Assembly (NCBI GenBank): GCA_010356995.1
Contig: ML996690.1
Span: forward strand, 1,272,217-1,336,216
Source: Trichodelitschia bisporula
Lineage: Eukaryota
Direction of reading: 5' to 3'
DNA: 64,000 nucleotides
Shown: positions 18,347 to 62,491 of the stretch, one piece after another
Layout: each line of letters opens with the position of its first letter
How positions within the stretch are numbered: position 1 is the first letter of the stretch
The notes under the pieces: generated by a model
What the model was told of the DNA's origin: nothing
Databases searched by the model: none
The model's input: only the letters and a program-made list of their open reading frames with translations
Made by a program: the position numbers and the translations under genes

Positions 18347-21322
18347 ATGAAGTTCGCAAAGTGCGTCCTCCTTTGCTCCCTCCCTAACCATCCCACTAAC
18401 ACACGCCCCGCAGGCAGCTGGAGACGGACCTCGTCCCTGAGTGGCGAGCTAAATATCTCGACTACAAGGCAGGCAAAAAGAAGCTCAAAGCCGTATCCCG
18501 CGCCTTTCGCAACGCGCACCAGACCCCGCGCTCCGTTCCCCGCTGGCGGCCCTTCCTCACTCCTCAGCAACCCGAATCGCAACAACCACAACCCGCGCAG
18601 TTCGGGCCTACACCCCAAGCAACGCCGGCCTCCCGTGCACGACCCACTCCCCGACAACCCGCCCGCCAGCCTACTCTTCCGCGGCGTGAATCCACACCTC
18701 TCATAGGCGATGAGCCCTCAGAGCTCCCGCACCTCACCCGCTATGGCAGCATCGTGGGTACGCCGCCAAGCGGCTACACACCGACGGCTTCCGCCCGTGG
18801 TCGCGGCGTGCCGTCGCTCGAGCTGCCCGACCCGGCGCTCAACGTCAGCCGGCAGAACACGGCCGAGAGCAAGGACATGGCCGCACGGCCATTCCCCAGC
18901 AAAGGGTCAAACGGGACCAGCCTGCCGCGGCGACGCAGCACGATGGGCCTTTTGCGCGGAGGCTCGGACAGCGGGGCCGGTGGAGGCATAAAACGGTTCT
19001 TCGGAAGGGGAGCTGCGACCTCCAGCGGCGACGAGTTCCCTCTCGAAGCCTTCCGCGACCTCGACGTGCGACATGCCGAGTTCTTCAATTTCTTGGATAT
19101 GGAGCTCGCCAAGGTCGAGGCCTTCTACCAGCAGAAAGAAGATGAGGCTACGCAGCGCCTGCGTGTGCTGCGCGACCAGTTGCATGTGATGCGTGACCGG
19201 CGCCTTGAGGATCTTTCCAGGTCGCGCGATGAGCAGGTGCCCCGCAAGGATCCCCAGCAAGGACCTCAATCGTGGCTGAACGCTCTCGACTCTGCGCTCG
19301 AGGCGGCGCGCCACGGGCGCTTTGGGCCGAGATCGCGCGCCATGGAGGCGATGACGACACCTGCCGGGCCACAAGGCATCGATAGCACGCGTGACTATGC
19401 GCGACGACCACATGGCGACGAAGTGTCGTACCGTACGGCGAAGCGCAAGCTCAAGGAGGCGATGCAGGAGTACTATCGCGGCTTGGAGCTGCTCAAGTCG
19501 TATGCGCTGTTGAACCGAACCGCTTTTCGCAAAATCAACAAAAAGTATGATAAGACGGTAAATGCGAGGCCGCCGCTGCGGTATATGGCTGAAAAGGTAT
19601 CAGCGGCGTATTTTGTGCGCAGTGATGTGCTTGATAGGCATATTCAGGTGGTTGAGGACCTCTATGCGAGGTATTTCGAGGGTGGTAGTCACAAGCTTGC
19701 CGCGAGTAAGCTTCGAGCAAAGGCGCACCGGCCGGGTGAGTATTCGGCTGCCTCGTTCCATAACGGGCTGCTGTTCTCGGCGGGCTGTGTATTTGGTATC
19801 GAGGGGTTGGTGTACGCCGTGCAACTGCTGAACCACGATGACAAGGTCCTTGCACTGAACACGAGCTACCTGCTGCAGCTCTATGGCGGATACTTTTTGC
19901 TGCTGTCGCTCTTTTTACTCTTCTGCCTTAATTGTCGGTATTGGGCGAAGACCAAGATCAATTATGTATTCATCTTCGAGTTCGACACGCGCCACCACCT
20001 GGACTGGCGGCAAATGTGCGAGGTACGTGTCTCGTTTTCTCGGATGGGACCTTGTTGACGATCTAGCTCCCATGTCTCTTCACCTTTATGCTCGGCTTTT
20101 TTCTATGGCTCAACTTTTCACGTTATGCCGATCATGATATGTACTTGTACTTTCCCGTCATACTCATCGCTGCGACCTTCGCTGTCCTCTTCTTCCCATT
20201 CCGCACCCTCTACTGGCGCAGCCGCACCTGGCTCCTCTACTCCCTTTGGCGGCTCTTCTGGTCCGGGCTGTACCCTGTCGAGTTCCGCGACTTCTTTCTC
20301 GGGGACATGTTCTGCTCCCAAACCTACGCGCTGGGCAACATCGAGCTCTTCTTCTGCTTATACGCGACGGGATGGAGCGAGCCACCCCAGTGCAACAGCT
20401 CGCATTCGCGCCTACTCGGCTTCTTCACCGCACTGCCCGGCGTCTGGCGCGCACTACAGTGCGTGCGTCGTTACCGGGACACGCGTAACGCGTTCCCGCA
20501 CCTGGCCAACTGCGTCAAGTACATGTGCACGATGCTGTACTACGTCAGCCTGAGCTTGTACCGGATTGACAAGAGCGTTGGTCTGCGTGCATTCTTTATC
20601 TTCTGCGCCGCCATTAACGCTATTTACTCCTGTAAGTCTGCCTTCATTTTTTTGGGCCGTTCCTAACGGGCCCAGCCATCTGGGACTTGGCCATGGACTG
20701 GTCACTCCTCGACCCCACCGCATCGCCGAAATATCTCCGTTCGCACCGCGGTTTCAAGCACGCGTGGATCTACTACGGCGCCATGGTCGTCGACCCCATC
20801 CTGCGCTTCAATTGGATTGCGTACGCCGCTTACGCCGCTGACGTCCAACACTCAACACTCGTGTCCTTCATAGTCGCCCTGACTGAGATCCTGCGCAGAT
20901 CAGGCTGGACCCTCCTCCGTGTTGAAAACGAGCACTGCACGAATGTAGGCCGCTTCAGGGCTAGCCGCGACGTCCCGCTCCCGTACCAGATCGGGGACGA
21001 GGAAGCGCTGTCCGCGACGGAGACGGCGGCGGGCATGGACTCGTCGGGTGACCCGACCCCTGGCGTGGAGGGACATGCGGGGATGAGCCACACTCCGCAG
21101 TGGCTGGCGCGGGTGCCGCAGCCGAGTCCGCTGATGAAGGGCCTGGGTCGCGTGGGGAGCTTGATGCATATTGCTCACGCGCAGGACTTTGAGAGGAAGA
21201 GGAGGACTGAGGCCGGGGCGGAGGTTATGGGGTCGGCGGAGGAAAGTACGGATGAGGATGAGGAGAGTGATGGGGTTGATGGGGGGAGTGGGGGGGAGGG
21301 GAGGGCGGGGTCAGACAGGTAG
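18347..21322 (+). CDS. SYG1: SPX-EXS domain protein (Syg1/XPR1 phosphate exporter family), 4 exons
   Basis: MKFAK|QLETDLVPEWRAKYLDY, FFNFLDMELAKVEAFY and LLNRTAFRKINKKYDK (SPX). VEFRDFFLGD, WDLAMDWSL and RVENEHCTNVGRFRASRDVPLPY (EXS). Confidence 0.93.
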
Positions 21323-21792
21323 ATGGTGTTTTTGGGGGTGATGCCACATGGTGTTTTAGGTCGGGGCGGCGTTGCACTATTGATTTTGGCGGGTGTGGTT
21401 GGCGCTTTGGGAAGTATAGCCAATACATTAGGAGGAAGATATGATCAGAAGTTTACCAGGCACCAGCATCTGCATCTTGCTATCCGCCTTTCCCACCAAC
21501 TGCGGATTCCTCACATTCTCGTCTCTCAGTGCCACCCGTCGTCCGATCTCGGGCAACCTGAGGCTCTGCCCGTCCAATGTTTGGCAGGCACGTCCGCAGG
21601 TACCGGTGACGTAGGTATGCCGGCAATGGCGAGTGCAATGGCGACTGCACTGCTTTTCCGGCTCGCGACTTCCCTTCTCAGCTTTCGCGACTTCCCCTCT
21701 CAGCCTTTACAACCTTCCCCCCTCGACATTATGACTAAACCCTTGTCCCACCGTCACTTTAAAAGCTCAGTTCCGCCCTTTCCTCGCAACAT

Positions 21793-22360
21793 TTCTCAAC
21801 ATCATCTCCAACATCATCTCTCAACATCATCTCTCGGCATCACTTCACAACAACCTCCTCAGCACCATCTCTCAACATCACCACCTCTACAACATTGCAC
21901 CTTTCAAGATCACCTCTCAACATCATCCCCTCAACATCACTTCACCATTCAACCTCACCTCTCAACATCATCTTCCGCCATTGAGCAGCGCGCCTGTGTG
22001 CTCCGTCTGGGGACACTTCCTGCTCGAATGCGGTGTGCTGCTCGCACGCTACGCAGTCGACATCCCCAAAGCCGTCAAAATGGTTGCTATACCGCTTCCG
22101 TTACTCGTCGACGCTTTGGAGCACACGGAAGCCGCTCTGAAAGATCGCTCGCCGGGCGAGAGCGATGAGCCGGGGCCTGCGCGGCTCGGCGAGCGATGGC
22201 GATAGCTCGTCGACGCGTACCGCCAGCCAGTTACTATGCCTTTCAACCTCACCTCTCAACATCATTTTTCGCCGCTGAGCGGAACGCCTGCACTGTTGCT
22301 ACGACCGGATACCCTACAGCATCATGTATCTTCTCTTTCCATCTTGCCTCAACATCATTT
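21793..22360. repeat. Dispersed (T)CAACATCA(T/C) minisatellite, about 9 copies
   Basis: CTCAACATCA recurs through 21793-21971 and again at ~22253 and ~22347. TTCAACCTCACCTCTCAACATCAT occurs twice (~21948, ~22242). Confidence 0.8.
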
Positions 22361-22448
22361 ATTCCCCCCGCACGGTGCCGACGGGCATTTGGCGGATACA
22401 TACGGAGACAACGGTGACTCCAAAAAGCGCAAGGCCTCGGAAGTGGTA

Positions 22449-22625
22449 CATGAAGTAGGCCAATGCAAACTTCAGAAGGCGAAGATCACGCAAAAGGTCT
22501 TTGACCGGGAGCGTGCCAAAGCGGTGGCGGCAGATGACTTTTTCATGCTGTACACGTCCGCCTCCGCCGCTGATGGAGTGCTGCCAGACCGATCGGGCAT
22601 CGTAGACGCTTCAAACTGGGACTCA
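22449..22625 (+). pseudogene. Fragment resembling the C-terminus of Crinkler (CRN)-like proteins
   Basis: HEVGQCKLQKAKITQKVFDRERAKAVAADDFFMLYTS...LPDRSGIVDASNWDS matches my recollection of the EVxQxK...ERxKA..xDFFxLxT...LPxxSGIVDxxNW pattern. It is truncated before the usual YFGPF. Confidence 0.55.
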
Positions 22626-23290
22626 GCGGTCTCTATGACCTCCACCATGTCAATCTAGTTCACGAAGCCTTAAAAAGCCAGGCTTTGGGCTTTGGGGAAA
22701 TCGATGTCGCCCCACACGACAGGCCCCCGGCAACTCTGTGTTTCCGATCCTCATGCAGACGGGGCCACACTGGAGACACGCTCTTGTGTGGATGTGGGAG
22801 TGAGGGCTGCTCTGGCTTCAAACCCTTGCATCTTCGAAACCTCTGCCTCCACCCACACACACCATATGCCGGACGTCTCCAATCCCCCCACGGATTCTGC
22901 GGACTGCTTCTCACAACACACCTACCCCCGACCACGCCACTCCGACTACGGACGTCTCCATCCTCTCCGCGAATTCTCGGGCCGCTGCCTCCAATATTCC
23001 CCACCCATTGCCCGGGGTAGTGCCAGACCTCTACCTATAGCTCCAGTTGCGAGAGTGTCTGACTCTCTTCTTCCTTCGCCCATCTCCAAGCTTTCACTTT
23101 TCACCGATTCTGCACGCGAAGACCACTGCTCTCTTTCAAGCGTTTCGTACATCAGGCTTTGCCCCTGGTTAAGCCAGCCAACGATGGCGGCCAATTCGCT
23201 CCTGAAAAGGCTCGAAGACCCAGATTTTGTTGTGTACACTTCCAAGTGCGGAAATGGGGCTGCCGGTCTCGAGGAACCAGCGGAGCCTCT

Positions 23291-23440
23291 TTGAAGTACC
23301 TCTCGCATTGGGAATTCAATGATTATGACAATCTCTTGAAGATTGAAAATTGAAAATGCACCGGACAAACTCTCTGGCAATACCACATGGCAGAGCTTTG
23401 AAGAATTTGTCTGCAAATTTCGAGTTCTGGGGGCATATGG
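23291..23440 (+). pseudogene. Second CRN-like fragment (central region), frameshifted by a 7-bp duplication
   Basis: Removing one TGAAAAT copy (23344-23350/23351-23357) gives LKYLSHWEFNDYDNLLKIENAPDKLSGNTTWQSFEEFVCKFRVLGAY, with the pattern WxFxDY...WQxFExFVxxFR. Confidence 0.5.
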
Positions 23441-23830
23441 CTTAGCCAGTTGCAGATAGCTCCATCACCGAAACAACTTACTTTCTCACATTTGCTGGTC
23501 CATGATTTGTGTTATGAAGATATGATGTAGAAGCATTAGTTCTACTACTGAGGGAAGGAGCATATGAAGGACTGTGGGTGTTAGGATGTTACACTATGAT
23601 GTTAGGTTTATATGATCTGCGAGGACGCAGAGGATACATAGCAAAACATGGCATTGTATTTAGTCTGAAGTGACTCGGTCGCTTATCTGTTTCGCTTCGT
23701 CTTTTATCCACTCTTTTACTTGACATTCATTGCTATTGTACGTGTTAAGGCCATGCCCCATTATGCTGAATGAGGGCGTCGAAGGCAGAGTACTGAAAGA
23801 AGAGGGATGCAGCCTCTGTTAATACATGCA

Positions 23831-23959
23831 TATATAGACGCTCTAGCACTCACACAGCACTTTGGTGCTGCGTATATCTTCCTTACCATGACTTGCAGCC
23901 CCCATTGGATTCAAATTCTGCGGGAGATTGGCTCTGGACAAATTCCAAAGGAACGGCCA
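23831..23959 (+). pseudogene. Helitron Rep/helicase N-terminal (Helitron_like_N) fragment
   Basis: YIDALALTQHFGAAYIFLTMTCSPHWIQILREIGSGQIPKERP fits the Helitron Rep motif-1 region YxDAxAxxxxFGxPxxFxTxTCNPxWxEI...GQxxxDRP. Confidence 0.8.
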
Positions 23960-25128
23960 GCAAAACTGAACTCGCACGATTCTGCTGAGGCGGAAACATC
24001 TCAAAGCACTCCCGAGCTCATCATCAGGTTCCGCTGAAGAAGCAGACGGGGCTGGCATCTGCCCCCCCCATAGAGTTCTCCGGCGGAGGTGGGAAGGGAG
24101 ACCTCATTCTATTAGCACGAGAGGGCGCAGAATTTGCGGCCTTATTGCTCTGGGACATTTGAGATGGGGTATAGCAAGGCGCTGAGGTGCTGGTTCGAGG
24201 AATCCTCGGCCATGACCTCGTTTGTCGAGAACGAGCGGAATGAAAGTCGGAAGCGCTTGAAGATCTGGACGGCAAGGAGGGGGCATCTCAGGTGGCCCAG
24301 GTTGGAGAGAACCGGGCAACTACGGTACTCAGATCAGGAGCGCAAGAGGGTGCCGACTGAGGAACAGAGGACGCCTTGTCGAGAGGAGCGGAGGATTGCT
24401 TTTCGAGCTATGGGTCGCGGGACGGCAGTTGAGGCGGAGGCGTACGATGGAGTCCTGAGGGAATACGGCGTGGCCTGAACCGACCTGGCAAAGCCGGCAG
24501 AGGGGTCAATGGCGGATACATGGCACGCTCTATCCACAAGGCGGAATGGAGTGGACAGCGCGGCCGTTCGGACTTTCCGTCTTTGTCGTATCGAGGAGGG
24601 TGACTGGGGAAGCCGGATACATCATTCGGAGGATGACTGAGGAAGAACGGGCCGGCGCAAAATTCAGAGGTTCTTCATCCTCACAATCATGTTACGAATC
24701 GTGATTTCACTAACGTGTTCTCGGTCAGCAAGCCCTTAACGAGGAAGAGTGCTTTGCATACATTATGATGGACGACGCTCTTTGTATCCAGATTCGCGAT
24801 TAACTCTCCGGAAGTTCTCTGGGAATTCTAGTTCTCGCATGTTTTGAACACCGCGAGCCCAATTATCTGGGCTGAAATTGGATGCATCGTCATGCTTGAT
24901 GAAGTCACAATGGAAGGAGCATCCTTACGATTGGAACGAACGCTCGTGGCCTCGAGGGGAGCATCTAGAACTGGGAAGTGCCGGAGGGGGTTCCGGAAAG
25001 ACGAAGAAGTCTTACCCAACAGGTTGTAACCAGATATAAGTAGGCCTGGCAACTCTCATATTTTTTCCTTCCCTCTCCTTCATCAACACTTTCACTCCGC
25101 AATCGTTGATTTGCAACGTGCCTGAGCC

Positions 25129-25635
25129 ATGCCATATAAATGGTACGACAACGAGCTGTCGATTCAACAGCACTTGCATCAGATGCAGCGTTCTGATTGG
25201 TATCTGCTTTCAGAGTACCTCAAGGCTTTCCGTAAAGCATGGAGGAAGGCCGTGAAGGCGAAAACCGAGTTGTCTTATGCAACTGCCCTCGAAATGATGT
25301 TCGAACAAGCTGATCTCGAGATCCCTGACTGTGTGGAGGCTTGCGAAGACGACTGGAAGACGCGCGGCTTGCCTCGTGTTCGAATTGATGAGCGAGAGTT
25401 TCGGAAAACATATCGCAAGCTCCTATCCGAAGCTCTGAAGTTTGAGAGCGATCCTGACTACGATTATTTCCATGAAAAGATCGGTAACACCATTCCAACC
25501 TCGGACTCCGAAACCGACGACGATGGTAGCCCAGAGCACAAACGTCACTGCTCCTCGGACGCAGATTTGACCCCGGACCAGTCTAAGCCTCCAAGTGGCG
25601 ACAAACAAGAGATTCCGAAGAGCGGGGCGGTCTGA
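25129..25635 (+). CDS. Hypothetical 168-aa protein inside the putative Helitron
   Basis: An intact ATG-started ORF with a helical, charged N-terminal part and an acidic/Ser-rich tail, preceded by a pyrimidine-rich leader. Confidence 0.5.
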   Translation: MPYKWYDNELSIQQHLHQMQRSDWYLLSEYLKAFRKAWRKAVKAKTELSYATALEMMFEQADLEIPDCVEACEDDWKTRGLPRVRIDEREFRKTYRKLLSEALKFESDPDYDYFHEKIGNTIPTSDSETDDDGSPEHKRHCSSDADLTPDQSKPPSGDKQEIPKSGAV

Positions 25636-26527
25636 TGTGAGTACACTAAGGAGCATTGGTATGCCTGAGAGGAGCATACTGACATGGGAAAGTGACAGAG
25701 GACAACACTGGAAGAACCATGGGAGAATACGTGGCAAGCATTGTATCCAGACATGTGTAACTACGCAGATCACCTTCTCTTGTTCTTCATCTGCATTTTG
25801 CGCTCAATAATGCACCGTTCTTTTGCACACGTGCCGTGGTGATGATCCCATTACCTTCGATCAGGGTCCTTTCAAATTCGAACACGAGTTGAAGTACCCC
25901 GACCCTCCGGTCTGCTTAGAAAGTACAAATGACACGTCGGTTCGGCAGTGTAAGTACGCTGTCTAGACTAAGCTGTCTAGCTCGTCGCAGATAGCTCGGA
26001 ACCCCAAAGCCTGGGTTAGGGGGTGCTTGACCGGACCAAGGCATGGCCAAATTGGAAGCGAATATAATGGTTAAGTTTTGGAAGGGAGACGATTTTTCAC
26101 CTCGAGCATAAGCGGGAAGATGCTATCAAGCGCTTAGAGGGTCAGGAAGAGTAAGCCGAAGGTCAAGAAGCCGTGCAGCAAGGAGCCGACAAAGCAACTG
26201 GGCTAGTCAAGAAGGCTGAGCTTGAGCTGCTTAGAGCTAAGTGTGATATATATAGCTAGTATGCAATGATAAATCAAGCTGATGGGAGCTCATTCATTTC
26301 CGTGCAAACGTGGCAAGCGGGCTGTCTCATCTAGTACAACGTGGCCTTGAAAGCGGATATCACTTCATTCGGGTCATACTATTTGGTTCATCATTCTTAC
26401 TACGTACGTTCAGTCCGTGAAGGCACGCAGTTCTAAACGGCAGCCCTCAAAGTAGAATAAGAATACATGTCATAGATCTGCCCAGCACCGTACCCACAAC
26501 GCACCCCTCCGCCAGTAATCCCACCCC

Positions 26528-29423
26528 CTACCGCCTCCGACTCCCATATCGATCCCTCACAGGGAACAGCAAGGCCGCATTCTCATCCCAAGTCGGCAAC
26601 ACCTCCCCCGCATCAATCTCCAACCCCCCAAACAACCGCTCCAATTCCTCAGCCCCAATCCCCTCCACCCGATTCAGCGTGTGCCCATGCAGTACAAAGT
26701 CCAGGCAAAACCACTCCAACTGCAGTCCGCGCCGAAAGGACTCCCGCATAACCAGCTCATCGGAACGGAGTAGCCGCGCAGGCGTGGTTTCGGCAGTGCG
26801 GCCCCAATTCTCCATGCACCCGTACCCGACCAGGAATTCCTGCACATCCAGCCGCGGACCCGTGTCTTCGCCGCGCCCTTCGATTGGGTCGGTAAATCGC
26901 ATACCAAGTTTGACGAAGAAAAGGGTGGCGCGGACGAGGGCGGCGGAAGGGAAGTGTGATGTGTTTTGGATCAGCTTGATACGCGGGATGTTGTAGGGTA
27001 ATGCCATTATGACCCAGATTCGCAGGAGGACGGGGATCATGTGCGGTGGCAGTGTGTGGCCGCGCGATTCGAGACCGCGGATTATGGCGGCGCAGGTGTG
27101 GTAATGGTGGTGCGCAAGGCGGAGGTAGCGGAGTGAAGGAATCTGGCGCACGTCCGGGTAGGCGGCTTTGGTGCGGATGTCGCCCTTGCGCTGCATCGGG
27201 TCTTTTTGTTGGACATAGGCGAATGCCGCGAAGGGGAGGGCTGACCACGCGCCTGGGATGTGGTATTCGGTCCAGTTTTTGATAACGCTCTGCAAGTCCC
27301 TATTTACGGTGAAATGGAAGGGCTTGCTGATGGCATAGAGCGAGATCAGGTCCTCCAGGTCGACAGCCTCGCATACTCGGTAAAACACGTCTACTTGCTG
27401 GCAGAGTGCGTCAATGAAGGCAAATTTGGGCTTTGGAGTCCAGTGGGCAACCGCGATGGGGTTGTCGATCAGGCGAAGGGTGGTACGGCCGTGGGAGTTC
27501 GCGGCGATGAAGTTGTATACCGGGTTGACTGGGCGCCAGGACCCGTCGCGCGGCTGAAATGATTGCAAGCGGCGGACCTCGTCATGAAGTGGGTATACAC
27601 GCAAGTTGGTGTTGACCATGCGCAGAACGGTGTCGACATGCCCTTCGTACGTCGCGTTCGTGCGGAAAGGCGTTGGGCGGAGGTTGATAAGATGCTGGAG
27701 ATTCTCACGCGTCTCGCCGTTGATAGGGAACAAGACTTGGCCTTGACGTCCTCTAATAGCCCACTCCTGGTTGAGGCAGCGAGGAAGGGATGAGAAAGAC
27801 TCTGCTGCATGGTCCTCGGTCTTGATCCCATCATTCGTGGCCTGGCGCTTAGCCGGCATGCTGGTCTCGGGATCGTCCAGGTCGGCGGCATTGGCGGAAC
27901 GCTTCTGCCCACGAAGCTGAGAGGTATTGACGTCGGTGGGAGGAGAAGAAGGCTTTTCATCCGAATGTGGGCGCATGCCTTCGAGGACATTGGCCAAGGT
28001 AGGAGCGAACTTTCCTTGAGCGACAGAGAGATTCTCTTGCCCCATAAAGAACTCACCCAGACGCGGGAAGGCCGTCTTGATATTCCAGCCACCGAGCGCA
28101 GGAGCCACGCTTTCCTCGCGAATGGCCTCGTCATCGGGATCCGCCTCGTCGTAAGCATCGGTCCAGTCCTTGGAACCCGTATTCTTCAGCAGAGGAGTAG
28201 AGTGGCTCTGCAGCCCTGGAAGATTCGGCAAAGGATGGCTCTTCATAAGCCGCGTCGCCAGTCTCAATTGAAAAGACGGCCATGATGCGCGGGTTTGGGT
28301 CGTAGTCCGGAGGCGGATGCTGAGACTGCGCGGTGTGGGTTCCCAAGAGCCGGTTGAGGGCATTGTCAATAGACGTGCCCGGCTCTATTTGCTGCGCTGC
28401 GGCTTGGCGCTGGCCGAGAGGGTTCTCAGCCGAACTAGCAAACTGATTGAAGCCGGGTCTTTGCTGAAGCTGGGCCTGTACAGAGGGCTGGTTGGTCCGG
28501 GCTGTGATGGGAACGCCGGCACGCGGCCTCGGATGGAATGTAGAAATCACTGGCATACCTAGCAGATTGCCACGATGCGGTTCACGATCCTGGACGGGTT
28601 CAAATCGCGAGTGCCGGTCCTCAGCGGCGGCGCGATACTGCTCACGGTTGCGGGGAGGCGACCTGCTCCGACGCAGGGAAGGATGCGCGCGATCCCGAAC
28701 GCGGCTGTGATCAGACACTCCAGTATTTCGGTCAACCTGGCCCATTGCCAGAGCGACATTGTTGTAGACGAGGCGATCGGCGATACACGTAGCCATCCAG
28801 TCCACCGTTGCAGAGGAGATGATGGCGACTCGACCGATGTTCGACGGCTCGTCGCGCGCTTGATACGGGGCTCCGACCCTAGCATCATAGATCTCCAAGG
28901 TCGCACCAGGTTGGCAAGGCGTTGGCATTATCATAGGCGTTGGGTAAGGTAAGGAATAAGAAGACGTATCCACCGGTGTGCCAGAAGCCCTCGGCGCCCT
29001 CTGTGCCTGAATCTCCATTCTGGCCTCGGCGTAACGCTGCGGTGGCAAAAACGCAATGGAGATCCCGTTTTGAAACATGGGAAGCTCCGCTTTTTCGTCC
29101 GTGAGGTCTATCGACACCTCAGGAATCGAACCAGGACCATAAGGGGCAAGAGGGATTTGCGGAAGGGAAGGCTGAGAAGGGAGGGCACTGCTGCGCTGGG
29201 AGGATTGCCGGCCGCGGTTGGTGCTCTGCGTATTGGAGTGCGCAGTGCGGTGGCCTCGAACAGTGTCGGAGGGAGCTTGGATGGTCGGTACTGGGACCGG
29301 CCTGGGGAGAGGAACAGTGGCGCGACCTCTGCGCGTGGTGCTGATGGAGGAAGCAGCTGGCGGAGGGTTGCTGGTGGAGGCATTAGGCTGCCACACAGTT
29401 CCTGTGAGATTTCTATCGGCCAT
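26528..29423 (-). CDS. Fungal hypothetical protein (disordered N-terminus, conserved C-terminal domain with F-box-like segment), split over two frames near 28170
   Basis: A 430-aa ORF and a 613-aa ORF overlap. The C-terminal part has DLISLYAISKPFH, IPSLRYL, FFVKLGMRFTDPI and LLRSDELVMRESFRRGL. No convincing intron is present at the junction. Confidence 0.6.
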
Positions 29424-38460: not shown

Positions 38461-41400
38461 ATGGCCGTAGTGCCAATCGCCACTCTCAATCCGACGGCTC
38501 CGCTGCCTCGGAACACCACCATCCGCGCCGTGGTCAGCTTGCTCTGGCCCTACAGCCCCTCGACGCGCGCTGCCGCTCTGCTCCTCGTAGAACCGGACTT
38601 TCGTCTCCGCCACCAACGCGGTCAAGTGCGCGTACAGTTTACGGGTGCCAGCGCACAGGCAGTCGCCCGCAGCGGCGTGAACATTGGCGATGAGGTTTTT
38701 CTGAGCCTCGAGGGCGGCGTGTGGGTCGAACCGCAGAATGGGGTACAGACGCCAGGGAAGAGCGTTGAGGGCGACATTCGCTTCAAGTCGGAACTAGTCA
38801 TGAAGGTACGATGCACAGAGACGGAGTGGATGAAGCTGACTGTGTAGATTGTTCGTGAAGGCCGGGACTCCGGCATCGAGGTCGCCGCGGGCTCGCGCGA
38901 CAGCACACCTGAGCTCGAGGTCGAGCCGACGACGCCAGCTAAGCTAGCAACACCCGCTCCCCGGATCAGCTTCGGAACTCCTGCGACGGTTGCTTTCCAT
39001 AAGCGGGCGCGTATATCCGGCCATACGTTTGTCGACTCCCCATACGACCCTTTCGTGGACGATAACAGGAGCTCCAAGCGCATGCGCCTTTCTTGGGGTG
39101 GTTCAACCTGGCGTATGGAGGACCGTGTGCCTTCACCGCAGAAGGGCCGGAGAAACATACTTTTTGGTGTTGATCTCGACAGCACCGACGCTATGGACGT
39201 TGGCACCCCTACTCCTACTTCTCCCGCTCCTGAAAACGTATCCCCCCAACTCGTGCAGCAGATCACACCTCCACTCGAGGAAACGTCCGTGGAGCATCAG
39301 CACGATGCTGCGAAGCCTGATCTGATGGATATCATAGATCAATACGTCGAAGATGGGGAGGTGGAACACAACCTCACTGTCGGCCAAGCCGCTCCATCAA
39401 CACCCACCCCGGAGCACCTTGACATTGATGTGGGCTCAACACCCCAGCTTGACCAGCGTGATGTGCGCCACACTTCTCTTGCCCCTGCTGAGCCTGCATC
39501 CAGCTTCTTTGAACTGAGCCCTCAAGACATCGCCGCCGGTGAATGGGCGCTTAAGTACAGCGAAATGATCGGTGGTGACACTGAGGACGACGAGTACGAG
39601 GAGCCCCTTAAGCTTCGTCGCCGTCTGGCACCGGAGATAGTGTCCAGGGACTTTGCCTATGAGCAAAATGTGGAGCGCGCTTCGGATGTCCCAGAACATG
39701 TGGATAGAAGTGAACAGCGTGTGGTGGTCGCTACTAACCGGGACAGTACGACTTCCCTCGGCAAGAGATCCAGCGACTCATTCAAGGACGATACAGACAC
39801 GGCCTCGGATACTTCGGAGGTACGGAGTCCTCCAAAGAAGAAGCAGAGATCGGCTGAACCTGAGATGGTCAAGGAGCTTTCGACACCTGCTGCCATGACT
39901 ACGCCATCCACTGAAGTCGTTGGACCCCCGAGGGAAGATATCAGCACTGCTGCAGATTCGCTTATCTTGGCTACCGATTCCAGTGATTCTGAGGAGTCAA
40001 ATGAAGATACCAACAACATCGCAGTGCCTGCTGCACCCAGCCCCCCTCATGTCCCGGAACCCATAGTGCGGATGCAGCCTCCCTCGCTGCCTCAACTTCG
40101 AACCTCCACTACGCCCTTGAACACGAGTCTCAAGTCCTCTAGCTCCCCTCACTCCCCGGATACTCCCTCCCTGCAGCCGCTCCTGTCAGCAACACTCCCG
40201 CTGCCATCCCCCTTTCCCGGCAACAATCTGACCTCGTCGTACTTTCCGCGCACCACTGTCCGCGTGAGCTCAGGCTTCCTGGACTCGCTGCAGCCGCAGG
40301 GCTCGGGCATCATGTCAGATCTTGCTTTTCAGTTTGGTTTTGGATTCGACGAGGAGATAAATGTGGACGTTTCAGAGCCTTCCAAAGAGGAGGCTCCGAC
40401 GGGAAAGACTGCAGAAGACGACGTTACGGTTCCGGCAGCAGTGGCGCACGAAGCAACTTCGGCTGCGATGTCTGAGCACGCATCGCCTGCTGCTGAAGTT
40501 CCCGAGGTTACGCCTCATTCGAATATCCAGCCTGGCGAGTCTGACGTTGACCATCTTGACCGGGCTGAGACATCTCCAGCTCACTCCTCGGATATTGAAG
40601 AGTCGATCGAACAGATCACTGAAGAGTCCATCGAACAGATTACTGAAGAGTCAATCGAACAGGTTACCGAAGAGTCTGCCAAAAAGGTCACCAAAGAGTC
40701 CTTCGAGCAGACCACGGAAGAACCCCTCGAACAGACCACGGAAGAGCCTATCGAGCAGACCACTGAAGAGTCCTTCGAGCAGACCGCCGAAGAGTCTATC
40801 GAACAGATCACCGAGGAGTCCGTCGAACGGGTCACTGAAGAGTCCGTCGAACGGATAACGGAAGAGTCATTTGAACAGACCGCGGAAGAGTCCCTCGAAC
40901 AGATTACTGAAGTGTCGATTGAACAGATCACCGACGATTCCATCGAAGAGATCACTGAAGAATCCGTCGAACAGATTACTGAAGAGTCCTTGGAACAGAC
41001 CACTGGGGAGACCCTCGAACAGATCACGGAAGAGTCCTTGGAACAGACCACCGAAACTCCTGCGGTCCAGCAAGATGAAGCCCCCTTAGACGTTCATGAG
41101 GTCCAGTCGCCGCACGCTGTTTCCGTAGACACCGAAATGCTGGATGATACTCCCCTTACTGAAGCCAAGATCATGGACGAACCGTCTGCTGCGGCCACGG
41201 TACAGCCTGCCGCTCTGGCCTCGGATTTCGGTGTGCGTTATCCGTCACTTCCCCCAATGTCCAGCCCTGCCCGCGAGATAGTCACCAGGCAGACCGCTGA
41301 AAACACTAGCCATTTTCAGTATCCAGCGCTGCCACTCGTCAGCGATGACCACATCACGCCTGAGCCTCCGGCCGCTCCGCAAGGGTCCCAATCTCTTGTC

Positions 41401-44097
41401 ATCGACCTGCTCGATTCCGATGAAAAGGGGACTAGTGAGGCCACTGAGTCTGGCGAAGGATCCGAGTCCGGCGATGAAGAATTGGATGAGGAGTCCGAAG
41501 AGGAATCAGACGATGAATCCGGCACGGTGTCCTGGAACCGTCGGCATTTGATTCATGATGAAGCTGGGGAAGCTGGCTCCGAGGAAGATGACGAGGAAGA
41601 CCCTTCGGAGGATGAATCGGGCTATGAATCCGATTCGGTGGCCTGGAGGCGCCAGATTATGATTCGGAGGGGCATTGACAATGCTGGCTCCGAGGAGAGT
41701 GATGAGGATGCTGACTCTGAGGAAGATGATGCGGATGCTGACTCCGAAGGTTATGGAGGACACCATTCTGAGGAGGCTCTTGACGATGAAGTTATGTCCG
41801 ATATCCAGTCTAATGGATCACCTCAGGCATTTGCGACAGCGGCCCTCGATCCTGGCGACAACTCTGGCCGTCCGAACGAGAAATCACACAGTGGGCCATC
41901 ACCTGGAGAGGAAGAGAAGTCTGAGTCTGAGGATGAATTCCCTTCGATCGACGCTCTTCTCGCTGAAGGGAACTCATCCTGGAGCCTCGCTGAGCCTCAG
42001 ACGCACCAGACTGAGACTCAAAACTTGTTGGAAGCTGACGCTGGCGGCAACACTGACGATGTCTCCATGCCTACCGTCGAAGCCCCAGAGACTCCTCCTG
42101 ACAATGCGCCCATCAATCAAAGCCAGGAACCAGAAGCTCCCTCTCAGCGCAGCGAGCGCTTCGTATCGCCCGATTATCCGGAGTATGATTCTCTTCCGTC
42201 CTCAGAGTCCGACAGCCTTCCTGTTACTGAGGATACCCCTGTTCAGTCCCAGCCTCGGCGTTCCTATAATCTTCCGCCTGTCCCATTATTTCCGCGCCTT
42301 GGTGAGCACAGGCAAGATGAAAAACTTTCCGTATCAGCTTCGCAGTCTTCTGCGGTACTTTCCCAGACTTCCGTACCAGGTCCGCACAGCCCTGTTGGCA
42401 TTGATCCGAACGACGAAGGCTCTTCCGATGTTGAAGCTCCTCAGTCGTCTGCTGCTGCTACACTCCGGCCTGAGCTTGAAGTATTGATCAAGCCCGGACG
42501 GGTGAGGAACTCTCTTCAAGCTATGGTCGGAGAGGGTGCTCCAACCTCTTCTCAGTCGTATGCTCGTACGCGGCGCGTTGGCTCTGTTATACTGTCCCAG
42601 GATAATACATCCTCGTCCTTGCCTATGAAGTATCCTCCCACGCTGGAGATGGCGGATACCGACGAGGGCGTCCTGAGGGAAGACAGTTCAATATCCACAC
42701 TTTCGTCAGATCCCGTACCTGAGCATTTGGCTTCAGAAGGCTCTGATTCAGACGCACCATTACTCAGTGCACGGGGCAAGGCTAACAGAGTGTCTCATCA
42801 AGTTGCGGAGGACGATGATTTGCCTGACACGGGCCAAGGAGAGAGTGGCGAAGAAGAGAGCGACGAAGTTAAGACCGGCGAAGAAAAGACTGGCGATCTT
42901 CTCCGGTACCGGTATGGTAAGAAACGTGAAGCGCGCGAGGCTGTCTTCGACGAGATCAGCGAAGACATGAAGGAGAAAGTCCGGCTTCAGAACCTCCAGG
43001 ACTCTGAGCAGTCGTCGGCGCAACAGTCGATCGAGCCGGAGCTCACTAACTACTATGTACCCCCTCTTTTTAGCGGCGAGAGCCACTCCATCATGACCCC
43101 GGATCCGAGCCAGAACCCCTCGCTCCCGCTCCCATCTTTTCAGCCGGCGCAGCAGTATCAATCTGCTCCCCCTCTGACGCCGCAGATGACCCAGTCTCAG
43201 TTCGACTCCGTGGATGATTATATCAGCCAGATGCTCCAACCGGAAGATCCACCCGCGCTGCCGGACGTGCTCGATTCCTTCAACGGGTCACAGACGCTCC
43301 GGTCGGAACATCCGTCACCGCTGCCGCACGTGCCCTCTTCCCCTCCGCTGGAACCGTCGAAAGGGATTGACTCGGACGGATCGAAAAAACAAGCCGAAGA
43401 CTCGACCACAGCCTCTAGTCTTTTGCGCGATCTCAAGTCCCAGCTCCTGGCCTCCCAGCAATCCCAGCTGGAGTCCTCCCAGGTCGAAGCTCCGCCTTCG
43501 TCGCCCCCCTCGGAATCGACTAAGGCTGCGTTCACCCACTTTTCTCGGACAGTCTCGCAGGCCAGGGGTCTGGTGACGCCGATGGGATATTACACTCCCC
43601 TCCCTGCACTGGTGAATCATATCAATACAGCATCGCAGTTCGACGCGTCCGTGGATGTTCTCGCCGTCGTAACCTCTGTGTCGGATATCAACCGCGCGAA
43701 GAAGGGCCGCCGGCACCACTTCGTGACGGTGAAGGTCACCGACGAAGCAAGCTGGCCACATAGTGTTGGGGTGAAGGTCTATCGGCCATGGAAGGATGCC
43801 CTCCCAAAGGCCAGTGTCGGCGACGTGATCCTGCTCCGCGATTTTGCGGTGAAGAGCACGAAGGGTGGTGCGGGAGTCGCGATGGAGAGCACGAATGGTA
43901 GCTCCTGGTGCGTTTGGCGCCTTGAGCATCTCACAGATTCTCACCGCAATGGGGCGAAGGCGGGAAGTATGGAGGCGCTGCAACGGGTTGAGGAGGCTAC
44001 AGGCCCGCCGGTGGAGATTGGGCGTGAAGAGAGGAAGGCGGTTCGAGAGAGGCAGCTTTGGTGGATGAGATTGCCCGAGAAGGGAAAGGCGAAGTAG
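38461..44097 (+). CDS. Very large acidic protein with N- and C-terminal OB-fold-like domains (POT1/Cdc13-type telomere-binding-like C-terminus), intron 38806-38847
   Basis: N-terminal IRAVVSLLWPYS...LLVEPDFRLR...GQVRVQF...IGDEVFLSL. C-terminal VDVLAVVT...VKVTD...VKVYRPWKDALP...GDVILLRDFAV. The linker is about 1500 aa of low complexity. Confidence 0.75.
40597..41052 (+). repeat. Coding minisatellite, 19 x 24 bp (EESIEQIT-type octapeptide)
   Basis: GAAGAGTCNNTCGAACAGATCACN units are visible in the DNA and in the translation. Confidence 0.95.
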
Positions 44098-53302: not shown

Positions 53303-54791
53303 ATGGCATTATCGGTTCTGCTTGATTTCATTTCGCAACACTCATTTTTGGCTATTCTTGTGCTTTTCCTCGGATACCATCTCCGCACCAAATACCATAA
53401 TGGACTGAATAAATACCCCGGCCCATGGCTGGCAGCATATACCGACTGGTAGCGTTTCTTCGAAGTGCTGCTGAGCAGAAAGACCGAGGAGACTTACGTC
53501 TATGTTTTCAACACGAGACGTGGATTACCATGCACGGTATCGGCGCTGCGTCAATAATGCTTTTACGATGATGAGCCTCGTCACTCTTGAACCGCTGGTT
53601 GACAGCACGACGAAAGTCTTCCTCGACCAAACGGAGAAGCTGTTTGCGCAGACTGGAAAGATCTGCATTTTTAATAACTGGCTTCAGTACTTCGCCTTTG
53701 ACGTCGTGGGATCGATTACGTTTAGCAAGCGGCTTGGGTTCGTTGACCGCAACGAGGATGTCGATGGAATTCTAGACTTCTTGACTGGATTTGGAGAGTA
53801 CTCCAGTTTAGTGAGTTGTGACCGTCTGTCTCTGCTATGCTGACTTTACAAGATCGGACAAATGCCCGGGATAGACTCTTTACTACGGAAGAATGTGGTC
53901 CTAATGCAGCTGGCTCGATGGGGATTCATCAGCAGAACGTTCCCACTGGCGCAGTTTGCACTTGGAAGAGTTAAAGAGCGGGAGTTAGAGATGAAGGAAA
54001 TCCAGGCGAAGGGGGCGGATGCAATCCGCAAATCAGGCCAGGGCATCGACTTGCTCTCCCGCTTCAACATCGCCGTGCACGAACGCCCCGACTTTATGAA
54101 CCACCACGTCGTACTCACGACCGCCAACACCATGGTCTCTGCGGGAAGCGAGACAACGGGCATTTCCTTGTCCGCCGTGTTTTCCTACCTTGCAAAGCAC
54201 CCCCGCGTTCATGCCCACCTCCTCGATGAGCTCAGTGTCGCCGTGTAGAACGGGACTATCTCCTTCGCTGACAGTCTTGTCTCCTGGGCTGAGAGCCAGA
54301 GACTGCTATACCTCGACGCTATGATCCAGGAAGCGCTCCGGATGTACCCCGCCCTCGGGCTCCTGCTGGAGCGTATCTTCCCACCGCAAGGCGCGGAGAT
54401 TTGCGGGCATCTCATCCCTGGTGGCACGACTGTGGGATGCAATGCCTAGGTATTGCACAAAGATAAAGCGTTTGGCGAGGACGTTGACGTCTTCCGTCCC
54501 GAGCGCTGGCTGGAAGCACCGCCGGAAAAGTTGAAGGGGATGAAGGCGGTCATGTTTCAATTCGGCGCCGGGTCGAGGTCCTGTATCGGTAAGAATATCA
54601 GCATGATGGAGATGTTCAAACTGGTTCCGGCCTTTATCCTGAAGTTTGACGTAAGTTTCCTCTATTTTCCAAAGTCATCACTGACGGGACAGTTCGAACT
54701 AGCGCACAACCACGGCTGGACAACAAGGAATGGATAGTTCGTCCGACAGCAAAACTTCGACGTCATTATCCGGCCGCGCCCTACCACATAA
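53303..54791 (+). pseudogene. Cytochrome P450 pseudogene (pisatin demethylase-like group)
   Basis: N-terminal TM segment, KYPGPWLA, WLQYFAFDVVG, AGSETT, EALR, FRPERW and the heme motif FGAGSRSCIG. It has four in-frame TAG stops (53450, 54246, 54447, 54735) and a frameshifting deletion near 53500. Confidence 0.9.
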
Positions 54792-54799
54792 ATCTAGAA

Positions 54800-56965
54800 C
54801 TATTTGAACATCAACTCATCCCACAACTGATTCGAAAACCGTGCCCTCATCTCATCCACCGTCCATCCCTGCACAGCTCCAATTTCCGCCGCCGCCGTCT
54901 TCCACACAGCGATCTGTTCCTTCATCGCCACGTCGCGGAGATACGTCCGCGCGTCCACGCCCTTGAACGTAAGACCGTCCCACTCCTTCGCCAGATGCGG
55001 CCGCACCTGCAACCCCTCGCCCGTCGCGAGCCACTTATCAGCAACGGTTTGCAGAAAGCCCTGCCACTCGTTGTCGTCCACCGCGTCGGGGACGGTAAGC
55101 ACTTCGATCGCCGCCGTGCCGAACGTATTGCCCTGCATAGGCGCGAGGAGCAAGTCGCTGTCCCCGATGATGCGCATTTCGAGGAGGAGCCGCATCGGAC
55201 TTGACGGATCGAGCGGGTTCTTCGGCTCCGCGTACAGCAGCTTGATCACATCCCACCACGCCCTGCGCGCAACGCCCAGATCCGGCTTCGAGGGATCGTC
55301 CTTACTCGGCGGCAGCGGAATCAGAAACTCCATATTCCGTACCCGCATATTCTGCACCCCACGCCTGAAATGCAACGCATTCGGCAGCGCCGTCTTGATC
55401 GTCGGCTCCGCGCTCTCTCCAAGCGTGGGGGGTAAAATCGCCATCTCACTCGTAGCCAGGAGCTGGGCCTGCCAGTACCCAGGCAGCGCATTGAAGAACG
55501 GGCTGCCAGTCAGCACCCCCGCAATCCACCCCTGGATCCACTCTAGGAACGTGAGTCCCTCGTCTGGATACCCGGTTACGCCAGTGCTGTCGGGCGTGGG
55601 ATTCCAGGTGTGCACCCAGGATTTGGCTTGGTAGGGACACCAGAACCACTCGCTGTAGTAGTCGTTCAGTGCGCGGGTTTCAAACTCCGCGGTCGCGGTG
55701 GCGAGGCGCGTGGATGCGTCGGGGGAGGCAAACCATGAGGGGCGTAGGGCGGGGGGGATGTCGTTTTTGTCCAGCGGCGGGATGGCGAGGCTGATGTCGA
55801 TTTTGCGCGGCTTCATGAGCGCGTAGGACATCCGGTCGAGCTCGAAGGTGACGTGCGTGACGATACCGAACTATCCCATCAGCAAAAACCTCCCCATCAA
55901 GACCCTTACTCACCAACCCAAAGTTCCCCGCCGCAGCAAGCAACTGCCTCGGATCATCGACACTCTGAAGCTTGCCTTTGCAATCCACATACTCGATCCT
56001 GCGCACATAATCCGCAATCGCCTTATGCGCCCTCCCCGCCCCATGACACAACCCCTGCGTGATACCCCCCATCGTCACCTCCACCAGCACCGTGTCCACG
56101 GGCAGCACCCACCCGTTCGCAAGCTGCCACCGGCGGAGCGTCTCGCTCGTAACCCCCGCGCCTACTCGGACAAGTTTCTTCCCCCCGCTCTCCGCGCCGG
56201 GCTCAATGCTTTTCAGCTCGGCGACCTTGGCTGCAGCCGGAGGGTCGCCGGCGATGGTAATCGGGTCGGGGAGTGTGACTGCCGTCTCGATGTCCACGAA
56301 GCTCACGAGCACTTGCCCCGTTTGCCCGAAGACGGGCGCCCAGGAGTGTCTATACCCCGCGGCGCGCACGCGCAACCCTTTCTCCCCGGCGTAGCGGACT
56401 AGATTCTGCACGCCCAGGACCGTGGTCGGGACCGCCGTGTAGGCGGGGGTGTTACTCACGCTATGACCCCAGTTCTCGAACGGAACGGAAGAGTACACTT
56501 CCATCACCATCCTCTTCGCCTCGTCCTCATAGATTATCGGGAGATTCTTCAAATACGCGCGTTTCTCCAGCAATCCCGGCCCATCTTGCGTAACATGCAG
56601 ACAGTCCAGGAACGCGCCTTTTATCGCCTTGAGCAAGCTGAAATGCTGCTTCACCCCGGGGCTCCGGTGATCGCCAGGCTCGAACCCCGTGGCGACAACA
56701 GCGTCCGCGGCCGTCTTCCCATCCGCAAACGCCCCGATCTGCGCCTGTAGTTTCTCATCCCCGACCGCGGCGAGGGCTTCTTTGAAATGCGGCGTCCGGC
56801 GGAGGGCGCGCAGGTACCCGCGGATCTGCACCTCTGGATCGAAAGTGTGCGCTATAACTGGGTTCAGCACGTCGGTTTTGAAAGCATCGAAGTCGACGTT
56901 CTTGAATTGAGTGCGGAAGGAGTCGATGTTTTTCACGATCTAGCCTGTTAGGTCTTGCGCCCTGA

Positions 56966-57039
<74 letters not shown>

Positions 57040-57114
57040 GGGGCTCACGTCGTCGAGAATCACGTCCCGGCTCAGCTTCTCGATACTCGGAGCGGCGGGG
57101 CGTTTGGATGCCAT
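54800..57114 (-). CDS. FAD-binding oxidoreductase of the L-gulonolactone / D-arabinonolactone oxidase type, 3 exons (introns 57048-56940, 55913-55871)
   Basis: FENWGHSV...P, RVRAAGYRHSW, VRVGAGVT, EVTMGGITQGLCHGAG, NFGL|FGIVTHVTF, LEMRI, RPHLAKEW. Confidence 0.85.
56967..57038. repeat. 72-nt poly-G (poly-C on the coding strand) inside intron 1 of the FAD oxidoreductase
   Basis: An uninterrupted G run is directly visible. Confidence 0.9.
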
Positions 57115-57710
57115 GATCGTTGAGGGTGAGGTTGGCGTGGAGCTGGGGCTGGATGGCGCGGGCGATGCGGGCGCGCCGGCATAATGTATCTAAGCTGCAT
57201 ACGAAGGACGCCATGTAGTACAGCTGCGCCCGCGCGGGGCAGCTTCAGCTACTGGGTGCAGCTTGTGGTAGCTGCAGCATAGCTGCATGCGTGGATGTTT
57301 CTCATTCCACTCCGCGCGGGCTCAGCCTTGCGTCTGATTCGGCACTAGCCGGCCGCCAGGGCGGTGAAAGAATGGCCGATTGGCGTGAGGCGTCGCGTGT
57401 GATTGGCGTAGCTTGGCGATAGGGTTGATGGGGAATTTTCTTTGGTTGGGGGGAGCTGGATGATGCCAGCTGGCATGTAGAACTAGGCGATGGATGTCGA
57501 GTGGTGTTTAGCATTGGTCCCGTGCATGTGGTGTCGTGGTTGGCGGGTTGCGAGAAAAACATGCGATTATGCTGCGGGGACTTCCAGCTGGACTACGGTA
57601 CCGGGTAATTGGCGGGTGGAATTATTCGCACATGTGAGAGATTCTGTTGCAGTCATTGCTCGTTACCCGTTACCAGACACTACGTACACAATACAATTAG
57701 ACGCACCCCA

Positions 57711-61700: not shown

Positions 61701-62224
61701 CGTCCGAGCTTTACTGGCTGTGACGTCGCTCTCAGTTGTTGCCTTCGACTCTCAGCCTTGTTCGCATAATCATCTGCGACACCGCGATAATGGGTATGGG
61801 AATCCTCCTGACGACAATCCATTGTGCTTACTTCGTATCCTGCATCTGAGCTTTCCCGTTAATCCCCTGCCGTGTCATAGGCTTTAGACTTCCACAGCTG
61901 CCAACTTACCCGCATTCGCCAACTTGGCTGCATATCTGATCACCCTGCATAACCAACCCCGATAGACATGGACCCTGAATTGACGCTCATCCATCCTTCT
62001 CGTACCTCCGATTACCCTTCCCCACCAAACATCCCGCCCCGATCGGCAAATAACGTCTAGACCGGTACTAGCCCCAGAGGACGCCTACCTGCACGCCCGC
62101 CGATCGCGCGCTGCAGGGCGGCAAAGGGTCGTGCTCGTCATGTACTTCGGGCGTTCGTACCTGTTTCCCCGTCACCTAGATATATGAGTGCAGCGGCGCC
62201 GCTTCTCCCATCATCAAACCCACA

Positions 62225-62491
62225 ATGGACAACTCAAGCATGTCATCACGCTACACAATCATCAACGACCTCAGGGACCAGTCGCCCCCGTCACGATCCG
62301 AATATGCGCGGTAAGTACTGAGCGTGAGGCAGTGTGTGATGGTAACTCACAAAGAGGCAAGTTTAATGCTGCAGCACACCAAGCAGCAGCTCGACGTCGC
62401 GGCCAACTCGGCCCTTCGGAGGTCGTCAGGATCGCCCTCAAGCTTTTCCAGTTCCTCTTCCAACAGCTCTGTGAGCTCTACTGGCTCTTGA
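62225..62491 (+). CDS. Spliced 71-aa micro-protein (exons 62225-62310, 62362-62491)
   Basis: Start context CACAATGG, donor GTAAGT at 62311, branch-like GGTAAC and acceptor AAG at 62361. Product: MDNSSMSSRYTIINDLRDQSPPSRSEYARLMLQHTKQQLDVAANSALRRSSGSPSSFSSSSSNSSVSSTGS. Confidence 0.65.

Follow-up and report, generated by a model that had tools for sequence, protein, structure and literature searches.

The 5.2-kb gap downstream of a SYG1-type gene is probably a gene-poor spacer in which about 45–50 codons of a Helitron Rep gene survive as an isolated, inert fossil, with no bounded element definable from the window (the whole 64-kb stretch of DNA analysed here). A Helitron, whole or in part, would once have landed in the spacer or been carried into it, and deletion and decay would then have removed nearly all of the landed sequence. 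The features on which this reading and its alternatives turn are listed below, with a slash marking a proposed junction.

18400–21322, plus strand: left flank, SYG1-type gene with SPX and EXS domains (Pfam)
21323–26527, no strand: intergenic gap, 5205 bp, from the stop of the SPX/EXS gene to the stop of the convergent 618-codon ORF (ORF list and sequence)
21469–21470, plus strand: proposed 5' TC end, present; 21468/21469–70 reads A/TC
21786–21975, plus strand: degenerate CT/CA-rich tandem repeat with periods 13, 25 and 45, unit about CATCTCTCAACAT
22144–22197, no strand: GC-rich inverted repeat, 14-nt arms, 93% complementary, 26-nt loop
23774–24037, plus strand: ORF with the Helitron Rep relic, 87 codons from stop to stop, with homology only at about 23825–23983 (42–51 codons)
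25129–25635, plus strand: orphan predicted ORF P0001, 168 aa; no other annotated protein was found in the gap
26300–26334, plus strand: proposed 3' end, present; six-pair bulged hairpin (26300–26320), 10-nt spacer and CTAG (26331–26334)
26528–28384, minus strand: right flank, convergent 618-codon ORF with no Pfam family, GC3 0.69

The gap lies between two convergent genes, as the earlier note had described. The SYG1-type gene, which ends in a TAG stop at 21320–21322, matches SPX at E 1.4e-65 and EXS at E 1.8e-12 and 1.5e-30, on two ORFs. Closely spaced convergent pairs, to which the note had also pointed, do occur elsewhere in the window: two were found, namely L27 (ending at 15462) with Abhydrolase_2 (ending at 15543), separated by about 80 bp, and GH31 (ending at 48385) with APC3/TPR (ending at 48611), separated by about 225 bp. 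The gap is longer than these two short spacers, so extra DNA has accumulated; one insertion would explain this simply, and the point counts against our preferred reading. The size of the gap is not unique within the window, because a second large ORF-poor interval (56940–63112, 6.2 kb) lacks any ORF of 200 codons; none of its 59 ORFs of at least 60 aa has a Pfam match at E ≤ 0.001. Nor is the gap empty, since it holds a predicted protein of the source genome at 25129–25635. Apart from the Rep relic, it contains low-complexity repeats, this single orphan predicted ORF and DNA that cannot be assigned.

The presence of a plus-strand Rep-motif fragment, claimed from the sequence by the earlier note, is borne out by Pfam, phmmer and tblastn matches at about 23825–23983. 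The relic ORF matches Pfam PF14214 (Helitron_like_N) with E 2.1e-7 and 31.8 bits, above the gathering cut-off of 28.9, over only positions 98–148 of the 191 in the profile; a match at 23831–23959, whose absence the note had named as refuting, is thus found. Among the 108 stop-to-stop ORFs of at least 35 aa in 21165–26770, it is the only one to reach its Pfam cut-off. An exhaustive phmmer search of 1.84 billion proteins with the relic ORF returned 110 matches at E ≤ 1e-3; ten of these were checked against Pfam, and nine carry Helitron_like_N (E ≤ 1e-39), five of the nine together with PIF1. The top match, P0002, is a repeat protein whose score sums over 30-residue repeats; it has no Helitron domain. 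RepHel proteins are 44–58% identical to the relic over 42–51 residues, and no Rep protein in a set of about 15 billion, clustered at 50%, comes closer. When 111 proteins were compared with the window by tblastn, 132 HSPs fell on 23735–24028, the best at 23825–23983, while the remaining 554 (E ≤ 10) comprise the self-match of P0001 and chance-level hits, the best of which has E 0.002 at 56918–56595. Fourteen columns are invariant over eight aligned sequences (the relic and homologues), forming the block YxDAxAxxxxxG....FxTMTxxPxWxxI...E...G at ORF residues 20–55. Judged by this homology, a Helitron-derived coding sequence is truly present on the plus strand at about 23825–23983.

The alignment shows an 11-residue gap immediately upstream of the conserved block, and tblastn finds no continuation of Rep homology beyond the relic in any frame. 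In the homologues the HUH (two-histidine) block, KRGLPHxHxLL, lies about 45 residues past the matched block; the relic ORF has no counterpart in the alignment, with unrelated residues at that position and a stop at 24035–24037. No helicase-like sequence was found in the gap by tblastn with the 111 protein queries, five of which are RepHel proteins with PIF1, no PIF1 match appeared in the same 108 ORFs, and neither the gap nor the window shows a helicase trace. GC3 of the relic is 0.47, compared with 0.69–0.79 in six long Pfam-positive ORFs and the 618-codon downstream ORF. The relic frame stays open over its 87 codons, an observation that counts against a relic-only view. The relic covers the first conserved Rep block alone: both catalytic blocks (HUH and tyrosine) are missing, as is the helicase, and it can neither transpose nor nick DNA.

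Among known systems, the relic resembles the truncated RepHel remnants reported in fungal genomes (PMC4289320) in being a non-functional partial transposase gene in intergenic DNA. The truncated elements described there keep an intact 3' end, whereas the gap has no convincing one, and the truncated RepHel/PIF1 helicases keep helicase sequence, of which the gap has none. With canonical Helitrons (Helitron1/HLE1), such as HELPO1 and HELPO2 of Pleurotus ostreatus (PMC4289320), the gap has in common a Rep-type (Helitron_like_N) coding sequence; a TC and a CTAG can be found on either side of the relic, rightly oriented and beside A and T. Unlike them, it keeps about 50 Rep codons with no HUH/tyrosine block and no PIF1 helicase, its ends are statistically indistinguishable from background, and no copy family is known.

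A Helitron-derived element with other borders, truncated or of Helitron2 type and either confined to a portion of the gap near 23.8 kb or extending differently, is possible although unlikely. It would account for the relic, which is real, and it fits the portion of PMC5148889 that reports most Pezizomycotina Helitrons as grouping with Helitron2, with asymmetric terminal inverted repeats in place of TC...CTRR ends; for this reason the canonical-end model may be an unsuitable test for this locus. FoHeli elements, which are of Helitron2 type and occur in Fusarium oxysporum and other Pezizomycotina (same portion of PMC5148889), come from what is probably the same broad host group, filamentous ascomycetes, and the relic could belong to the FoHeli clade. 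Unlike in FoHeli, no asymmetric terminal inverted repeats were identified in the gap, and the FoHeli1/2 terminal hairpin motifs given in that portion are absent from the window even when up to 3 mismatches are allowed (0 matches).

Three internal features speak for such other borders. GC content drops to 0.44–0.49 around 23001–24000. The GC-rich inverted repeat at 22144–22197 forms the strongest local hairpin of the gap (−21.2 kcal/mol, z −2.27, with 5 of 200 shuffles as good) and is tied to no element end. An 18-nt inverted repeat with 89% complementarity (22675–22692/26000–26017) brackets the relic and P0001; however, its likeness ends by about 20 nt, and by our own reckoning, made without a dedicated tool, chance alone would yield about one such repeat, with two mismatches, in 6 kb. 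Helicase remnants are also missing from the gap, and one copy cannot define ends. Other repeats in the gap include a 52-nt copy of the tandem repeat, with 85% identity, at 22239–22290. The 10-mer CCCCAAAGCC, chosen post hoc, occurs three times in the window, all within the gap (expected 0.12), a clustering that hints at some internal repeat structure and counts against our preferred reading.

The earlier note had instead delimited 21469–26334 as one canonical (Helitron1-type) non-autonomous Helitron, inserted at A/T and carrying a Rep remnant with captured host gene fragments, an interpretation that we consider improbable. Every feature that it named lies where it was placed, and the Rep fragment does exist, on the plus strand. 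At the proposed 3' end, 26300–26320 reads CCGTGC-AAACGTG-GCA-AG-CGG, followed by 10 nt and CTAG/T; its six pairs form two runs of three separated by a 2-nt bulge around a 7-nt loop, and the 10-nt distance from hairpin to end fits the canonical 10–12 nt. The strand of the Rep ORF agrees with the proposed TC...CTAG orientation, which has a 1 in 2 chance and counts against our preferred reading.

These ends are nevertheless no better than chance. The hairpin folds at −2.9 kcal/mol (z +0.71), with 150 of 200 shuffles equal or better, and of the 297 CTRR/T sites in the window, both strands counted, 137 are preceded by a 36-nt stretch whose fold is no less stable. At the other end, ATC occurs 981 times on the plus strand of the window, 20 times within 21323–22000 alone. 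A HelSearch-like scan of the window, with the 2–4 nt loop and 5–8 nt spacer quoted in the relevant text of PMC4289320, returned 80 sites, compared with an average of 83 over 20 shuffles; the scan did not pick 26334 and gave no CTRR/T match in the gap on either strand. The canonical 3' hairpin, described in that text as 16–20 nt, differs from the six bulged pairs, 7-nt loop and 10-nt spacer seen here. Real Helitron hairpins can be short and a single copy cannot exclude the ends of an unknown family, which also counts against our preferred reading. The account of HELIANO (PMC11417382) notes how common TC/CTRR signals are and how many false positives they produce; according to it, non-autonomous elements are recognised through terminal sequences in common with autonomous copies. 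Positions 21469 and 26334 are arbitrary choices among many equivalent TC and CTRR sites.

Excision of 21469–26334 does leave 146 + 193 = 339 bp with the join CAGCA/TACAAC, close to the spacer of about 340 bp that the note had given and like other convergent spacers. Because the ends had been picked by the note's reader, the A at 21468, the T at 26335 and the 339-bp spacer all follow from that choice, and the spacer is not independent evidence. Given chance-level termini and hairpin and the failure of HelSearch-type settings, the reading of the interval as one element finds no support. The canonical interpretation is further weakened by the prevalence of Helitron2-like elements, with other ends, reported for Pezizomycotina (PMC5148889, in the portion cited above). 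The gap shows no RIP signature. This is a weak argument against the element having once been multi-copy, given RIP competence, which we assume for the source species.

The captured cargo and family membership proposed in the note find no support in the window. Beyond the Rep piece, no ORF of the gap has a homologue or a Pfam domain, the other 107 of the 108 ORFs scanned in 21165–26770 being without one. The ORF at 22236–22655 yielded no homologue, and the ORF at 24164–24475 no Atlas match. A tblastx comparison of the gap with the window gave no matches to other genes, solely repeats of low complexity within the gap, none scoring above 40 bits; the sensitivity of the word-based searches is limited. 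No second copy of the proposed element occurs within the 64-kb window, which leaves its status as a non-autonomous family member unsupported.

For P0001, the 100% match is the protein of the window itself, and 22 candidates included no further relative. Pfam gives it no family at E ≤ 0.1, the nearest being DUF7607 at E 0.22. It is quite improbable that 21469–26334, or a differently bounded part of the gap, is a genuine, recently mobile non-autonomous Helitron of a Sordariomycete-like genome whose payload is lineage-specific orphan ORFs such as P0001, next to a phosphate-signalling SYG1-type gene.

Very improbable, too, is an arrival of the Rep-like piece other than as a Helitron, either as filler DNA at a repaired break or within composite transposon debris, for example a retroelement relic of which the P0001 ORF would be the trace. 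The homology does stop abruptly on both sides without continuing in shifted frames, and the Atlas model of P0001 has several gag-like structural neighbours, which may be weak leads (rows 1, 2, 4, 8 and 9, with TM by query of 0.47, 0.43, 0.42, 0.45 and 0.39, hence a range of 0.39–0.47). All of these TM scores, however, are below 0.5 and the feature scores below 0.9, and the AF2 model of P0001 (pLDDT 52) is too poor for testing the fold. Matches to gag, RT or integrase families of Pfam are absent from the 108 ORFs, and the gap has no LTR-like direct repeats, its longest direct repeat being 52 nt. The idea that the Helitron_like_N match is chance and the gap lineage-specific non-coding DNA, to which a Pfam score just 2.9 bits over the cut-off across 51 of 191 profile positions might lend itself, is effectively refuted by an E-value that survives correction for the 108 ORFs scanned, by the 109 phmmer matches besides P0002, with nine of nine examined being Helitron_like_N proteins, and by the invariant columns of the alignment.

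The fossil-bearing spacer that we favour has little importance beyond annotation, as an ordinary transposon fossil, and the locus is best labelled as a fragment of a Rep pseudogene, derived from a Helitron and lying in an expanded spacer, and not as a delimited Helitron. It illustrates a known pitfall, in that TC/CTRR ends with a short hairpin turn up nearly everywhere; since 46% of the CTRR/T sites in the window qualify at equal stringency, calls made from structure alone near a single Rep fragment are unreliable. If genome-wide copies proved real, P0001 would become an interesting candidate for the birth of a Helitron-carried gene. Were the mobile-Helitron interpretation true, the locus would be a case of Helitrons creating or shuffling new genes, here next to a SYG1-type gene.

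The expanded 5.2-kb spacer downstream of the SYG1-type gene probably holds an inert, Helitron-derived fossil. Measured from the SYG1-type stop to the end of the convergent 618-codon ORF, this gap (21323-26527) spans 5205 bp, the size given in the earlier note, and the short convergent spacers described elsewhere are represented by two ORF pairs in the window, about 80 and 225 bp apart. The window has a G+C content of 57%, and Pfam and ORF scans reveal an ordinary eukaryotic, fungal-type gene content.

Genes flanking the gap and elsewhere in the window
TAG at 21320-21322, + strand: SPX and EXS (SYG1-type) gene (ORF list, Pfam)
End at 26528, - strand: 618-codon ORF, the next long ORF past the SYG1-type gene
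53475-54734, + strand: multi-exon cytochrome P450 gene (four ORF pieces compared with the p450 profile)
In the window (Pfam): mitochondrial-type ribosomal L27; Abhydrolase_2 esterase; protein kinase; POT1-domain protein
In the window (Pfam): GH31 alpha-glucosidase; APC3/TPR protein; GTP cyclohydrolase I; M35 deuterolysin

The four P450 pieces match profile positions 93-181, 232-305, 312-366 and 370-436 in succession. The best solved relative of the GH31 ORF is PDB 5dkx (1427 bits, 947 residues), which we take to be a Chaetomium thermophilum entry. On this basis the source is taken for a filamentous ascomycete, probably a Sordariomycete. An uninterrupted 1749-codon ORF occupies 38848-44094 (+), and its sole Pfam match is a POT1/CDC13 telomeric ssDNA-binding domain near the C-terminus (residues 1592-1693). 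The 6.2-kb stretch at 56940-63112 contains no ORF of 200 codons, and none of its 59 ORFs of at least 60 aa has a Pfam match at E<=0.001; long, unassigned stretches are thus not unique to this locus. Nor is the gap empty, since 25129-25635 (+) is predicted as a protein of the source genome, P0001.

The Rep-motif fragment described on the + strand is confirmed in ORF 23774-24037 (+), which matches the Pfam Rep domain Helitron_like_N (PF14214) above the family cut-off (E 2.1e-7; 31.8 bits, cut-off 28.9), the match being limited to profile positions 98-148 of 191. It alone reaches any Pfam cut-off among the 108 stop-to-stop ORFs of at least 35 aa in 21165-26770. An exhaustive phmmer search with this ORF over 1.84 billion representatives returned 110 matches at E<=1e-3, superseding a word-based search for longer relatives in which none of 79 candidates scored. 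Pfam was used to check ten of the 110 matches; Helitron_like_N is present in nine, at E<=1e-39, and five of these nine have PIF1 as well. The top match, P0002, is an artefact of repeats of about 58 residues, each weakly matching 30 residues, and contains no Helitron domain; because its score is the sum of these weak matches, it is not counted as a Helitron. When all 111 stored proteins were compared with the window by tblastn, the best alignments fell at 23825-23983 and span 42-51 residues with 44-58% identity; a further 554 HSPs at E<=10 comprise the P0001 self-match and chance-level hits (best E 0.002, at 56918-56595).

Alignment of the relic with its homologues reveals a conserved block, YxDAxAxxxxxG....FxTMTxxPxWxxI, with an 11-residue gap directly upstream. 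The KRGLPHxHxLL block, located some 45 residues further on in the homologues, has no counterpart in the aligned relic. The relic is real but tiny and, judged from its sequence, is without the catalytic parts of Rep, given the absence of a KRGLPHxHxLL counterpart, and has no helicase at all. Its codons have a GC3 of 0.47, compared with 0.69-0.79 in six long Pfam-matched ORFs and the 618-codon downstream ORF.

According to PMC5148889, most Pezizomycotina Helitrons group with Helitron2, a type marked by asymmetric terminal inverted repeats and different target sites; TC...CTRR may therefore be the wrong model for this locus. The FoHeli terminal hairpin motifs, as printed in PMC5148889, have no match in the window. 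Non-autonomous Helitrons are described in the HELIANO paper as recognised via terminal sequences common to autonomous copies, and terminal signals as widespread, with many false positives (PMC11417382). A scan recoded from the HelSearch settings quoted in PMC4289320 (at least 6 pairs, at most 2 mismatches, a 2-4 nt loop, 5-8 nt to CTRR) gave 80 sites in the window, and 20 shuffled versions averaged 83. The scan found no CTRR|T match on either strand of the gap and did not select 26334, the proposed 3' end. By blastn, no part of 21301-26500 occurs a second time in the window.

The exact element of the earlier note, a non-autonomous Helitron at 21469-26334, is highly improbable. Its proposed parts are all present, namely A|TC at 21468|21469, a bulged hairpin at 26300-26320, a 10-nt spacer and CTAG|T at 26331-26335, and its removal leaves a 339-bp spacer, as claimed. 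As Helitron termini, these ends do not rise above chance. The hairpin, folded as DNA, reaches -2.9 kcal/mol (z +0.71), a stability equalled or bettered in 150 of 200 dinucleotide shuffles. Counting the two strands together, the window contains 297 CTRR|T sites, of which 137 have an upstream 36-nt fold that matches or exceeds this stability; ATC occurs 981 times on the + strand. Within the gap, the + strand has 13 such CTRR|T sites, none of them strong (best -4.3 kcal/mol).

The captured cargo attributed to 21469-26334 could not be identified by homologue, Pfam, Atlas and tblastx searches of the gap. P0001 is a helical orphan of 168 aa. A near-length word search for its relatives yielded, among 22 candidates, the window's own record alone; Pfam gave no family at E<=0.1, and PDB sequences gave no relative (single match, E 1.9). 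Several of its structural neighbours in the Atlas are retrotransposon gag-like, with TM-scores by query of 0.39-0.47, all below 0.5, and its single-sequence AF2 model (pLDDT 52.3, pTM 0.30) is too poor to bear on this likeness. The Atlas neighbours give a weak hint that P0001 may be a retroelement remnant or a gene of recent origin. ORF 24164-24475 is absent from the Atlas and has no usable match. A translated comparison of the gap with the window (tblastx) returned nothing but low-complexity repeats of the gap itself, at <=40 bits. Between 20.5 and 27.5 kb, RIP indices mark no RIP-like window inside the gap, and neither tRNA genes nor Rfam families were found there.

Repeats within the gap
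21786-21975: degenerate CT/CA-rich tandem repeat, unit approximately CATCTCTCAACAT, periods 13, 25 and 45
22144-22197: GC-rich inverted repeat, 14-nt arms, 93% complementary, 26-nt loop
22064-22073 (+), 22688-22697 (-) and 26002-26011 (+): 10-mer CCCCAAAGCC

The tandem repeat lies a short way downstream of the SYG1-type gene, with a 52-nt copy (85% identity) 294 nt further on at 22239-22290. The frame at 20636-22165 (+), that of the last SYG1-type exon, runs on for 281 codons past its single TAG. This extension is probably a non-coding composition effect of the repeat, and read-through was rejected, because its GC3 is 0.47 compared with 0.77 in the exon and the repeat leaves all three + frames open. 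A 306-codon frame at 21735-22655 (+) contains a single TAG (22203-22205). On either side of it the GC1>GC2<GC3 profile is coding-like and the peptide motif FNLTSQHH is repeated; a search with ORF 22236-22655, the second half, found no homologue. The GC-rich inverted repeat folds at -21.2 kcal/mol (z -2.27).

An 18-nt inverted repeat (22675-22692 / 26000-26017) was considered as a pair of TIRs; its flanks carry no matching target duplication and similarity stops at about 20 nt. It is near chance expectation by our own estimate and was therefore rejected as a transposon end. The three occurrences of CCCCAAAGCC in the 64-kb window all fall within the gap, against an expected count of 0.12, and 0 of 100 shuffles reach three; the motif was, however, chosen from the repeat list post hoc, and similarity around the copies ends by about 20 nt.

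The locus does not resemble a recently inserted, structurally intact non-autonomous element, and a Helitron-derived element with borders other than those proposed is unlikely. For the fossil that we favour, Rep homology is lost abruptly on both sides, with neither frame-shifted continuation nor helicase debris found, a pattern that points to a lone fragment or near-total deletion: the fragment would have arrived alone, or the element would have been almost wholly deleted.
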